Shown: positions 1 to 6,146 of the stretch, in pieces
How positions within the stretch are numbered: position 1 is the stretch's first letter
Layout: every line of letters begins with the position of its first letter
Source of the DNA: Escherichia coli
Lineage (GTDB): Bacteria; Pseudomonadota; Gammaproteobacteria; Enterobacterales; Enterobacteriaceae
Strand: one strand, 5' to 3'
NCBI RefSeq assembly: GCF_003334355.1
Contig: NZ_QOWP01000067.1
Length of the DNA stretch: 6,146 bases
The notes under the pieces: model-generated
Database searches by the model: none
What the model was told of the DNA's origin: nothing
Seen by the model: only the letters and a program-made list of their open reading frames with translations
Translations under genes and position numbers: made by a program

Positions 1-77
1 AAAGGGCGTTTATTCTTCCTATACGTTGTCGGCAGCGGGCCAAAAAGGAATACGTCCATGCCCATCGAGGTGAAACC
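1..77. repeat. Terminal redundancy, copy A (identical to 6070-6146, offset 6069 bp)
   Basis: Direct comparison: 'aaagggcgtttattcttcctatacgttgtcggcagcgggcc...gtgaaacc' occurs at both window ends; match runs to the last base, so repeat length is at least 77 bp. Confidence 0.9.
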
Positions 78-269
78 GGCTGTGAGCGCGGGTTCAAGCA
101 TATAGCCCGACAGGCGCGTATCCTTGCCGATCACGACACGATGGCGGTGGTCACCGCGACGAAAGACACGGCCAGCCGCCATGCCGACGCGCAAGGCGGT
201 TTCCGCCGTCATCGCGCCTTCGTTGGCTTTGCCACGAATACCGTCTGTGCCGAAATATTTGCGCACCAT
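27..269 (-). pseudogene. glmM: Truncated phosphoglucosamine mutase gene (5' fragment, about 81 codons of GlmM-like sequence) abutting the ISCR2 oriIS end
   Basis: Minus-strand translation from ATG at 269-267 gives [81 protein letters not shown], which follows the GlmM N-terminus as I recall it (E. coli [14 protein letters not shown]...); resemblance is lost after about position 27. Truncated glmM next to sul2 and ISCR2 is a known arrangement. Confidence 0.8.
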
Positions 270-355
270 AAGGTCGATTATCCTGTCGTCGGGTCGCCCT
301 CAAAGGGGACATGCCTGCTGAACCGCGAATATAGAGAAATATCCCGAATGTGCAG

Positions 356-1171
356 TTAACGAATTCTTGCGGTTTCTTTCAGCGCCGCCAATACCGCCAG
401 CCCGTCGCGCAAGGGGCGCGGCTCGTGTGTGCGGATGAAGTCAGCTCCACCTGCGGCGGCGGCAAGCTCTGCAGCGAGTGTCGCGGCCCCGACATCCCCC
501 GGACCACGGCCTGTGAGCGCGCGCAGAAAGGATTTGCGCGAAACAGACAGAAGCACCGGCAAATCGAAGCGCAGCCGCAATTCATCGAACCGCGCCAGCA
601 CCGAGAGCGAGGTTTCGGGAGCAGCCCCCAGAAAAAACCCCATGCCGGGATCAAGGACAAGGCGGTTGCGTTTGATACCGGCACCCGTCAGCGCCGCGAT
701 GCGCGCGTCAAAGAACGCCGCAATGTGATCCATGATGTCGCCAGCGGGTGCCTCGCGCCGATCTGCCTGCCCGTCTTGCACCGAATGCATAACGACGAGT
801 TTGGCAGATGATTTCGCCAATTGCGGATAGAACGCAGCGTCTGGAAAACCGCGAATATCATTGAGATAGGCCACACCACGCGACAAGGCATAGGCTTGCG
901 TCGCGGGTTGATAACTGTCGAGCGAGACGGGAATGCCATCTGCCTTGAGCGCGTCCAGCACCGGCGCGATACGCGCGATTTCTGTGTCGGACGAAACAGG
1001 CGCGGCGTCGGGATTGCTGGATGCCGGACCGAGGTCGATCACATCTGCCCCCTCGGCCATCAGCTTACGCGCCTGCGCAATGGCTGCGTCTGGCGCCAGA
1101 TACCGGCCTCCATCGGAGAAACTGTCCGAGGTTATGTTGACGATGCCGAAAATGATGAGCGATTTATTCAT
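356..1171 (-). CDS. sul2: Sulfonamide-resistant dihydropteroate synthase Sul2 (271 aa)
   Basis: Full-length ORF MNKSLIIFGIVNITSDSFSDGGRYLAPDAAIAQARKLMAEGADVIDLGPASSNPDAAPVSS...LKETARIR, recognised from memory as Sul2; high-GC coding stretch contrasting with the backbone. Confidence 0.95.
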   Translation of the reverse strand: MNKSLIIFGIVNITSDSFSDGGRYLAPDAAIAQARKLMAEGADVIDLGPASSNPDAAPVSSDTEIARIAPVLDALKADGIPVSLDSYQPATQAYALSRGVAYLNDIRGFPDAAFYPQLAKSSAKLVVMHSVQDGQADRREAPAGDIMDHIAAFFDARIAALTGAGIKRNRLVLDPGMGFFLGAAPETSLSVLARFDELRLRFDLPVLLSVSRKSFLRALTGRGPGDVGAATLAAELAAAAGGADFIRTHEPRPLRDGLAVLAALKETARIR

Positions 1172-1467
1172 GGGGGCTTCTATAATAATAATAATCGAGC
1201 ATGAGTCTCATACGGATGCTCGGGTCGAAAGGGAATCCCCAGGCGAGTAACCTGTTTGCGGTGATCCGTTTCATGATGATGTATCTGTAGCATTTTGGAA
1301 ATAAATATATCATCTCTCAATAAGTAGATATATTTATCTTTTTTGCTTCTTTGGTGCTGCAAGTCACCAATACGAGGGAAACCTGTTACGGAGCGGTTTA
1401 ACCGTAATCAACAGTGACTGGTGTCATGTTCGGAAGATTAATTGATAGTAATCTACAAAGGATCTTC

Positions 1468-1496
1468 TTGAGATCCTTTTCAATGAATCGTAATCT
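1468..1496 (+). promoter_or_regulatory. RNA II (primer) promoter: -35 TTGAGA (1468-1473), 17-bp spacer, -10 TAATCT (1491-1496)
   Basis: Position and sequence parallel the pMB1/pBR322 RNA II promoter ('cttcttgagatcc...taatct'); transcription start expected near G1505. Confidence 0.7.
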
Positions 1497-3933: not shown

Positions 3934-4323
3934 ATGAGTACAGAGTTAAATAGCGGTACTGTCGGTGGTTTTGGTCACATGGGACCAAATGACCCCTACA
4001 ATGATGGTCATAGCGGCTCTGGAAGTTCGGGAGGTAGTTTTAACGGTGGTGGTAATGGTGGCCATGATAATAGTAGTGGTTCATCTTATACTGCATCCTT
4101 TGGTCTCATCACTGGCCGACACCCGATAACTGTCCCAGGTACGAAGAATATTAATTCTGTCGATCTTTCTGCTGTCATTAATAACATTATACATCATGAA
4201 GGTGCACGCAATAACATGTACCTAGATACTGCGAACAATGTAAGAGTGGGAGTGACGGGCACTGGCTGGCAATGTCTAGCAACGGCAGGCATTTCGGCTG
4301 AGGGTAAAAGAACTTTCCGCTAA
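3934..4323 (+). CDS. Glycine/serine/asparagine-rich small protein (129 aa), putative SOS-induced bacteriocin-like protein or colicin translocation-domain-like fragment; family not recognised
   Basis: ATG 3934 with RBS 'aagagga' 8 nt upstream (the track's 3901 start is an in-frame TTG inside the LexA boxes). N-terminal 60 aa (MSTELNSGTVGGFGHMGPNDPYNDGHSGSGSSGGSFNGGGNGGHDNSSGSS) resemble colicin N-terminal glycine-rich domains in composition; the C-terminal 70 aa match nothing I know. AT-rich relative to ISCR2/sul2. Confidence 0.65.
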   Translation: MSTELNSGTVGGFGHMGPNDPYNDGHSGSGSSGGSFNGGGNGGHDNSSGSSYTASFGLITGRHPITVPGTKNINSVDLSAVINNIIHHEGARNNMYLDTANNVRVGVTGTGWQCLATAGISAEGKRTFR

Positions 4324-4329
4324 GCGATA

Positions 4330-4349
4330 GACTGTATGTAAACACAGTA
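4330..4349. promoter_or_regulatory. Canonical LexA box gACTGTATGTAAACACAGTAt (CTGT-N8-ACAG), 20 bp upstream of the ISCR2 transposase ATG
   Basis: Matches consensus TACTGTATATATATACAGTA at both conserved arms; 15 of 17 positions identical to box 1 at 3867-3883 (ACTGTATATAAACACAT vs ACTGTATGTAAACACAG). Confidence 0.55.
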
Positions 4350-6095
4350 TTGCAAGGACGCGGAACATGCCTCATGTGGCGGCCAGGACGGCCAGCCGGG
4401 ATCGGGATACTGGTCGTTACCAGAGCCACCGACCCGAGCAAACCCTTCTCTATCAGATCGTTGACGAGTATTACCCGGCATTCGCTGCGCTTATGGCAGA
4501 GCAGGGAAAGGAATTGCCGGGCTATGTGCAACGGGAATTTGAAGAATTTCTCCAATGCGGGCGGCTGGAGCATGGCTTTCTACGGGTTCGCTGCGAGTCT
4601 TGCCACGCCGAGCACCTGGTCGCTTTCAGCTGTAAGCGTCGCGGTTTCTGCCCGAGCTGTGGGGCGCGGCGGATGGCCGAAAGTGCCGCCTTGCTGGTTG
4701 ATGAAGTACTGCCTGAACAACCCATGCGTCAGTGGGTGTTGAGCTTCCCGTTTCAGCTGCGTTTCCTGTTTGCCAGCCGGCCCGAGATCATGGGGTGGGT
4801 GCTGGGCATCGTTTACCGCGTCATTGCCACGCACCTGGTCAAGAAAGCGGGCCATACCCACCAAGTGGCCAAGACGGGCGCGGTCACCCTGATCCAGCGT
4901 TTTGGATCGGCGCTCAATCTGAATGTTCACTTCCACATGCTGTTTCTCGACGGTGTGTATGTCGAGCAATCCCACGGCTCAGCGCGTTTCCGCTGGGTCA
5001 AGGCGCCGACCAGCCCAGAGCTCACCCAGCTGACGCACACCATCGCCCACCGGGTGGGTCGCTATCTGGAACGGCAAGGCCTGCTGGAACGGGATGTCGA
5101 AAACAGCTATCTGGCCTCGGATGCGGTGGATGACGACCCGATGACACCCCTGCTGGGGCACTCGATCACTTACCGTATCGCTGTCGGTTCACAGGCGGGG
5201 CGAAAGGTGTTCACTTTGCAAACTCTGCCGACCAGTGGTGATCCGTTCGGTGACGGGATTGGCAAGGTAGCCGGGTCCAGCCTGCACGCCGGCGTGGCGG
5301 CCAGGGCCGATGAACGCAAGAAGCTCGAACGGCTGTGCCGGTACATCAGCCGCCCGGCGGTATCCGAGAAGCGGCTGTCGTTAACACGAGGCGGCAACGT
5401 GCGCTACCAGCTCAAGACGCCGTACCGGGACGGCACCACGCACGTCATTTTCGAACCATTGGATTTCATTGCAAGGCTGGCCGCCCTGGTACCGAAGCCC
5501 AGAGTCAACCTAACCCGCTTCCACGGGGTGTTCGCACCCAACAGTCGGCACCGGGCGTTGGTCACGCCGGCAAAACGGGGCAGGGGCAACAAGGTCAGGG
5601 TGGCTGATGAACCGGCAACACCAGCACAACGGCGAGCGTCGATGACATGGGCGCAACGGCTCAAGCGTGTTTTCAATATCGACATCGAGACCTGCAGCGG
5701 CTGCGGCGGCGCCATGAAAGTCATCGCCTGCATTGAAGACCCTATAGTGATCAAGCAGATCCTTGATCACCTGAAGCACAAAGCCGAAACCAGCGGGACC
5801 AGGGCGTTACCCGAAAGCCGGGCGCCACCGGCTGAGCTGCTCCTGGGTCTGTTTGACTGACGAGCCTGAAGGCCAACGATACCAATCAAAATGCTGCGTT
5901 CACAGCGCCGCGGCAGGGATCCGCCGTGCTGGTTGTCGGAAAAGGAGCCGCTAGTGGGAAAGAGGAGGGTAAATTTTCAGCGTTGCTGGCTCCCCGTCAG
6001 CCGGATTGGGTTGCATCGCAGGGGTGTCGAAAGAGTCAACTGCGGTCCAAAGCTGTTGGACTTGGGTGAAAAGGGCGTTTATTCTTCCTATACGT
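4350..6095 (+). mobile_element. ISCR2 element (5' terIS boundary uncertain, about 4324-4366; oriIS end about 6095, equivalent to position 26)
   Basis: Transposase CDS plus about 235 bp of 3' sequence ending in '...gggcgtttattcttcctatacg', which resembles IS91/ISCR oriIS termini as I recall them; directly abuts the truncated glmM and sul2; composition shifts to high GC near 4350. Confidence 0.7.
4367..5860 (+). CDS. ISCR2 rolling-circle (IS91-family, HUH) transposase, 497 aa
   Basis: Recognised as the ISCR2 transposase; N-terminal Cys cluster CESCHAEHLVAFSCKRRGFCPSCG (zinc-binding), HUH-type motif in NVHFHMLFLDGVY, candidate catalytic tyrosines in RYQLKTPYRDG; RBS 'aagga' 8 nt upstream. Confidence 0.95.
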   Translation: MPHVAARTASRDRDTGRYQSHRPEQTLLYQIVDEYYPAFAALMAEQGKELPGYVQREFEEFLQCGRLEHGFLRVRCESCHAEHLVAFSCKRRGFCPSCGARRMAESAALLVDEVLPEQPMRQWVLSFPFQLRFLFASRPEIMGWVLGIVYRVIATHLVKKAGHTHQVAKTGAVTLIQRFGSALNLNVHFHMLFLDGVYVEQSHGSARFRWVKAPTSPELTQLTHTIAHRVGRYLERQGLLERDVENSYLASDAVDDDPMTPLLGHSITYRIAVGSQAGRKVFTLQTLPTSGDPFGDGIGKVAGSSLHAGVAARADERKKLERLCRYISRPAVSEKRLSLTRGGNVRYQLKTPYRDGTTHVIFEPLDFIARLAALVPKPRVNLTRFHGVFAPNSRHRALVTPAKRGRGNKVRVADEPATPAQRRASMTWAQRLKRVFNIDIETCSGCGGAMKVIACIEDPIVIKQILDHLKHKAETSGTRALPESRAPPAELLLGLFD

Positions 6096-6146
6096 TGTCG
6101 GCAGCGGGCCAAAAAGGAATACGTCCATGCCCATCGAGGTGAAACC
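6070..6146. repeat. Terminal redundancy, copy B (identical to 1-77); contains ISCR2 oriIS end and start of the glmM fragment
   Basis: Exact match to window start at offset 6069 bp. Confidence 0.9.

Follow-up and report, generated by a model that had tools for sequence, protein, structure and literature searches.

The window analysed here, a 6,146-nt stretch of contig NZ_QOWP01000067.1 of Escherichia coli (RefSeq assembly GCF_003334355.1), begins and ends with the same 77 bases, and this terminal redundancy is very probably the k-mer overlap left when the sequence of a circular, already known plasmid, present as a monomeric circle, was linearised. The window would represent one full copy of a circular plasmid of 6,069 bp that has a ColE1-type replicon, belongs to the p9123 family and holds, in its CR2-sul2 segment, the element ISCR2 (CR2, ISVsa3), a truncated glmM and the sulfonamide resistance gene sul2. 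In this explanation the assembler would have worked on a de Bruijn graph and printed an unbranched cycle with exactly its first k bases repeated at the end; the 77-base redundancy would be a linearisation artefact, outside the real molecule. Judged by its sequence, the plasmid is an already deposited and described member of a known family, with nothing new about it: the sequence has been deposited several times, and the family is already in print. The practical value of the result is small (the 77 bases are to be trimmed, and the contig is to be annotated as a circular complete plasmid); sul2 itself is best recorded as a gene of a high-copy ColE1-type plasmid that lacks a relaxase and belongs to the p9123 family, rather than as chromosomal or as part of a large conjugative plasmid.

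Terminal overlap and identity of the repeat unit

Bases 1-77 are exactly identical to bases 6070-6146, and no longer prefix-suffix match exists in the window; the unit length is 6,069 bp (6,146 = 6,069 + 77). A match of 77 specified bases by chance has a probability of about 10^-46. In the repeat search of the window, this pair was the sole long repeat; nothing else longer than 33 nt was repeated, and the next longest family was a 33-nt stretch of 11-bp iterons. The redundancy was as the original prediction had described it, and so was its position across the junction of the oriIS end of ISCR2 (up to 26) and the truncated glmM gene (from 27). The statement of one ColE1 origin and of single-copy genes throughout likewise held: RNAI gave a single match in the window (Rfam), sul2 and the transposase gene were each present in single copy, and no further long repeat was seen.

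The 6,069-bp unit was a rotation, with 0 mismatches, of three closed circular E. coli records, each of exactly 6,069 bp: RCS86_pI [Genbank: LT985307.1] from E. coli ECOR 4, pDEC5D-2 [Genbank: CP038387.1] from E. coli O55:H7 DEC5D, and p5735-1 [Genbank: CP154888.1] from a bovine E. coli. Each of the three contains the 77-mer once, and a 469-nt sequence across the closure of the window was found inside RCS86_pI and pDEC5D-2 (the two tested). Together with the complete replicon (see below), these data bear out the circular-plasmid reading (about 6,069 bp), which had been proposed from the letters alone. About eleven more records cover the full unit at 99.6-100% identity; these exist as free plasmids, range in size from 6,025 to 6,066 bp, come from Salmonella, Shigella, Citrobacter, Klebsiella and E. 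coli, and include an S. Choleraesuis plasmid of 6,066 bp that differs from the unit at 15 positions. At least 80% of the unit was present in one place in 18 PLSDB records and three complete E. coli genomes. In the public collection, 27,260 blocks contained the 129-aa backbone protein WP_000102614.1, and the longest contig with this protein was 5-10 kb in 17,335 of these blocks and >20 kb in about 100. Thus, by the near-full-length records and by the contigs with the backbone protein, free circles of 6.0-6.1 kb are far commoner than cointegrates. The backbone/ISCR2 junction was also present in two metagenome contigs (7,374 and 5,248 bp), which were partial matches with no end overlap; a scan of the genome contigs for this junction gave 0 matches.

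For a circular sequence, the overlap given by SPAdes is equal to k, and k = 77 is the largest default value for 150-nt reads. The end overlap of the window is exactly 77; this length is standard as a de Bruijn k, and assembly rather than biology is therefore the most likely source of the redundancy. If the graph had branched at the oriIS end (26/27), the overlap would be expected, from the positions, at 6019-6095 or at 27-103. The observed overlap starts 26 nt before the oriIS boundary of ISCR2 and runs 51 nt past it; because it straddles 26/27, it is consistent with a cut made at an arbitrary place in a cycle without branches. A printed statement that the SPAdes overlap is exactly 77 was not found in the literature searched, where we found only the general remark in the Unicycler preprint (10.1101/096412) that SPAdes assembly produces contigs with overlapping ends and that circular replicons are left with a small end overlap.

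Rival structures for the 6,069-bp unit

Several points weigh against the linearised monomeric circle. The physical form in the sampled cell is deduced from the sequence. A dimer or a perfect head-to-tail array gives an identical cycle in short-read assembly. In addition, relatives exist in which the unit lies between two direct copies of ISCR2 in a larger replicon (the IncX1 plasmid CP120342.1) or in which ISCR2-bounded units are tandemly duplicated in this plasmid type (p34514-2). It is nevertheless improbable, in our estimation, that the unit in the sampled cell was a head-to-tail amplified array, or was integrated between ISCR2 copies in a larger replicon, and was collapsed by the assembler. 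An amplified array could arise by ISCR2 rolling-circle replication round the whole plasmid or by RecA-dependent recombination, including RecA-driven amplification under sulfonamide selection.

The array alone, that is, at least two whole units head to tail (a plasmid multimer or an array in a larger replicon) collapsed to one cycle, is decidedly improbable. By itself, a de Bruijn cycle is compatible with a circle and with a perfect tandem array alike, multimers are known for ColE1-type plasmids, and a tandem duplication associated with ISCR2 has occurred on this backbone: p34514-2 (NZ_CP051330.1, 16,747 bp, from a turkey isolate of S. Senftenberg) consists of the 6,069-bp plasmid and, inserted at the oriIS end, two tandem 5,339-bp units, each with a 5'-truncated ISCR2 (window 4446 to 26) and genes for an AraC-family regulator and an MFS transporter, which may be an amplified, uncharacterised efflux cargo. 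The tandem unit of p34514-2, however, is ISCR2 plus cargo with the origin excluded, and not the whole plasmid. Moreover, two full units were present in none of the 18 PLSDB records and three E. coli genomes mentioned above, the whole replicon was repeated head to tail in none of p34514-2, CP120342.1 and the pCERC-like integrated members, and the cer-like Xer site of the window would serve to resolve multimers. As for an array inside a larger replicon, its entry and exit junctions would cause graph branches, with the contig broken most plausibly at 26/27, the very position that the overlap straddles. The tandem rolling-circle ISCR2 array, which the original prediction had kept as its less likely option, found no support, as the window has one ISCR2 of which only the last 26 nt are repeated and the overlap does not coincide with the ISCR2 boundary; reads are needed to exclude a collapsed perfect array. 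The outward-facing polymerase chain reaction (PCR) from sul2 and ISCR2 that the original prediction suggested would yield one and the same product from a circle and from a tandem array.

Very improbable is a cointegrate formed by homologous recombination, in which the unit would be integrated in a larger plasmid or in the chromosome between direct copies of ISCR2 (or of CR2-sul2), with the contig as a repeat-resolved loop of the graph. Such structures do occur among relatives: in the conjugative IncX1 plasmid CP120342.1 (58 kb; NZ_CP120342.1, positions 4175-12073), the order is ISCR2, the whole unit, a second ISCR2 in direct orientation, and then floR, and through such a cointegrate the small non-mobilisable replicon would become able to transfer; CP058344.1 contains window 315-6069; pCERC-like relatives are found in 70-167-kb contigs (larger plasmids) and in 4.75-Mb chromosomal contigs; and one integrated member of the family is listed by Branger et al. 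2019 (PMC6807383). Yet the graph of a cointegrate with different sequence beyond each ISCR2 copy would branch at the ISCR2 ends (4244 and 26), and the overlap would then end at 26 or lie at the terIS end, whereas the observed overlap of 1-77 runs 51 nt into glmM; the preponderance of free circles noted above also argues against it. The remaining explanation, a true direct terminal repeat of a linear, phage-like molecule, is extremely improbable. It has the formal resemblance of identical sequence at both ends, but a phage-type repeat is effectively refuted by the content of the window, which is a ColE1 replicon with resistance genes and no phage genes: the three backbone open reading frames (ORFs) had no PHROG match, the backbone/ISCR2 junction gave 0 matches in the viral contig collection, and the identical closed circles hold the 77-mer only once.

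Replicon, resistance segment and backbone

The features of the window are collected in Table 1.

Table 1. Features of the 6,146-nt window (positions in the window; bases 6070-6146 repeat bases 1-77).
Feature	Position	Strand	Basis or remark
Left overlap copy	1..77	unstranded	Last 26 nt of ISCR2 (oriIS end) and first 51 nt of truncated glmM
oriIS-end motif GGGCGTTTATTCTTCCTATACG	inside 1-26		
Truncated glmM (phosphoglucosamine mutase) pseudogene	27..269	-	Flanked by sul2 and by the ISCR2 oriIS end
sul2, sulfonamide-resistant dihydropteroate synthase, 271 aa	356..1171	-	NCBIfam NF000295 Sul2, 615 bits (cut-off 575), full length
RNAII primer region and origin	1507..2030	+	pMB1/pUC homology; start (~1507) deduced from the RNAI 3' end
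RNAI, antisense copy-number regulator	1509..1610	-	Rfam RF00106, 73.9 bits (gathering 47), E = 1.1e-12, full model
ORF, 49 aa, 'AbrB/MazE/SpoVT'	2360..2509	+	RefSeq WP_001138880.1; weak NCBIfam MazE match
Six 11-bp iteron-like direct repeats, TACATCACTT[T/A]	2830..2917	+	Repeat search and sequence reading
Xer (cer-like) core, GGTGCTGATAA-CAGATG-TTATGGTAAAT	3231..3258	+	2 of 22 mismatches to the XerC/XerD arm consensus, 6-nt spacer
Backbone protein, 146 aa	3276..3716	-	RefSeq WP_005119689.1; N-terminal helix-turn-helix and coiled coil, by eye
Gly/Ser-rich backbone ORF, 129 aa	3934..4323	+	RefSeq WP_000102614.1; crosses the backbone/ISCR2 boundary at 4244
ISCR2 (CR2, ISVsa3)	4244..6069 and 1-26	+	1,852 bp in all; complete, single copy
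GIsul2 att core GAGTGGGA	4244-4251		Exact match; overlaps terIS at the ISCR2 5' boundary
terIS GGGAGTGACGGGCACTGGC	4248-4266		Read in the window; sequence as quoted in PMC9376610
ISCR2 transposase gene, 497 aa	4367..5860	+	NCBIfam ISCR clade; RefSeq WP_001120888.1
Right overlap copy	6070..6146	unstranded	Redundant; the copy to trim on circularising

The replicon is of the ColE1 theta type, with RNAI present and a homologous, correctly spaced RNAII/origin region. The pMB1/pUC origin matched window 1574-2028 with 79.4% identity over 485 nt (E = 4.5e-115), an E value that validates the reference sequence used. A terminator-like hairpin (1536-1515) lies at RNAI. The geometry of RNAII relative to RNAI is established for ColE1. 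The origin homology of the window ends at 2028, at a distance of some 420 nt from where RNAI has its 5' end, and we infer that the RNA-to-DNA switch lies near 2028. Replicons of this type depend on the DNA polymerase I and RNase H of the host and encode no Rep protein of their own; no Rep protein match above the cut-off was obtained among the ORFs of the window (NCBIfam). Replication would proceed by the RNAII primer/RNAI antisense mechanism from a single origin near 2028, as the homology suggests.

The Xer core was the only candidate in the window with at most 5 mismatches when a looser XerC/XerD consensus with a 6-8-nt spacer was used. The exact ColE1 cer core as the query, with at most 3 mismatches allowed, gave no match in the window. 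Numerous small ColE1-like plasmids of Klebsiella and Enterobacter share homology with the window that breaks off at 3258/3259, exactly at the XerD arm; such a break would be the behaviour expected of a multimer-resolution site, and it suggests module exchange at this putative site. The region conserved with these small plasmids starts at about 2951. The monomer state would probably be kept by XerCD recombination at the core, a function assigned from the site.

The transposase of ISCR2 matched the NCBIfam model of ISCR clade Ia with 671 bits (E = 1e-201), below the exception cut-off of 925, and the IS91 model with E = 9e-31; RefSeq named WP_001120888.1 an ISVsa3 family transposase on the identical DNA, and the domains Zn_Tnp_IS91 and Y2_Tnp were found on the identical 497-aa product in relatives. 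ISCR2 matches in unrelated plasmids start at window 4244 or 4249, and the oriIS-side end was placed at 26, where the duplicated copies of p34514-2 stop and after which glmM begins. The motif at this end is of the GGGCGTTTATTCTTCCTATACG type, which we take to be the oriIS consensus. The element has an IS91-family transposase of the ISCR clade together with terIS and oriIS ends at the published positions; for CR2, terIS and the overlapping att core of GIsul2 (both given in Table 1) were described by Zhang et al. 2022 (PMC9376610). The sequence TTATTCTTCCT, which follows a hairpin at 2776-2800, was considered as a second, oriIS-like site and rejected: it has 11 nt in common with the oriIS of ISCR2, was not extended in the repeat search, and was attributed to chance (roughly four 11-mer repeats are expected in 6 kb).

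Sulfonamide resistance would be conferred through sul2, which was called with 100% identity in the identical records (AMRFinder). The coordinates of glmM were taken from the RefSeq annotation of p5735-1 (record 2202-2444, minus strand) and mapped to the window; in relatives, a 100-aa PGM_PMM_I product is called at this place.

For the three backbone ORFs (146 aa, 129/140 aa and 49 aa), searches of Pfam, PHROGs and NCBIfam gave nothing above the cut-offs. For the 146-aa ORF, the Pfam matches were all non-significant (i-E >= 0.006) and PHROGs gave none; its 44 bits with NF038291 (an Acinetobacter 'plasmid replication DNA-binding protein') were below the cut-off of 85. The 129/140-aa ORF had neither a Pfam nor a PHROG match; the last ~26 codons of the 129-aa form lie inside ISCR2, and since these residues are ISCR2-encoded, the insertion probably cut the ancestral gene short. 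The 49-aa ORF matched positions 53-80 of the 82 of MazE only (NCBIfam, E = 0.012, weak), and no toxin gene was recognised beside it; because of this partial match and the lack of a recognised toxin gene, it looks like a C-terminal MazE-like remnant rather than part of a working toxin-antitoxin pair. In the literature it is termed 'MazE TA system'. The iteron-like repeats are one helical turn apart with related half-sites on the flanks, lie ~360 bp beyond the 3' end of the 146-aa ORF, and are unexpected in a ColE1-type replicon.

Comparison with known plasmids and elements

RCS86_pI, pDEC5D-2 and p5735-1 have the genes and the closure of the window, which differs from them solely by the 77 repeated bases. 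With p34514-2, the window shares the backbone and the involvement of ISCR2; however, p34514-2 repeats 5,339 bp of truncated ISCR2 and cargo twice, whereas the window repeats only 26 nt of ISCR2 and its 'unit' is the whole replicon.

Compared with ColE1/pMB1, the window likewise has RNAI, a 79%-identical RNAII/origin and a cer-like XerCD site; unlike in ColE1/pMB1, the window ORFs searched yielded no recognisable rop, mobilisation or colicin gene. The Xer spacer is 6 nt in the window and 8 nt in ColE1 cer.

In the CR2-sul2 unit of GIsul2 (PMC9376610), as in the window, ISCR2, the truncated glmM and sul2 stand in this order, with the two genes convergent, and the att core overlaps terIS. No att core was found at the sul2-side boundary of the segment (~1267, 96 bp upstream of sul2); the segment is therefore not a complete att-bounded CR2-sul2 unit. 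The GIsul2 integrase gene is absent from the window.

The closest comparison is with the relaxase-negative 'RelN-RNA type 1 family', which corresponds to the 'p9123 family' of Anantham and Hall 2012 (Branger et al. 2019, PMC6807383). According to the latter study, every family member carries sul2, either in the sul2-ISVsa3 configuration or in the derived configuration of sul2-strA-strB with a truncated ISVsa3, and Anantham and Hall predicted that the sul2-ISVsa3 form is the precursor. For the derived forms, pCERC1 (JN012467) and pCERC2 (KX291024) serve as named references. The window belongs to this family by its backbone match and by sul2 adjoining ISVsa3. Among the ORFs searched, no match to a relaxase family was obtained, and the annotations of the identical records include no relaxase; the MOB-suite label of these records is nonetheless 'mobilizable'. 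An empty site, that is, the backbone without CR2-sul2, was looked for among the relatives and none was found; CP083879.1, considered as such a backbone, was in fact pCERC2-like, with its resistance genes annotated only as fragments. In two of the 4.75-Mb chromosomal contigs, pCERC2-like parts (window 1917-4772 and 315-1927) lie at ~7984-14216 and adjoin IS1 copies, a mer operon and type III secretion genes.

Window 315-4772 was 99.7-100% identical to the 6,222-bp sul2-strA-strB plasmids (NC_005324.1; p9123, pCERC2 form) and to the 6,790-bp dfrA14 form (pCERC1), and window 2100-4243 was 100% identical to NC_005324.1. These plasmids have the backbone and sul2 as in the window, and, like it, RNAI/RNAII replication and no relaxase gene. 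In the 6,222- and 6,790-bp forms, the 3' portion of ISCR2, along with the truncated glmM, is replaced by strA-strB (with or without dfrA14), whereas the window retains a complete ISCR2 and the truncated glmM, i.e., the 'sul2-ISVsa3 configuration'; it is thus the complete-ISCR2 form, which the literature regards as ancestral to the globally spread pCERC2/pCERC1 sul2-strA-strB plasmids.

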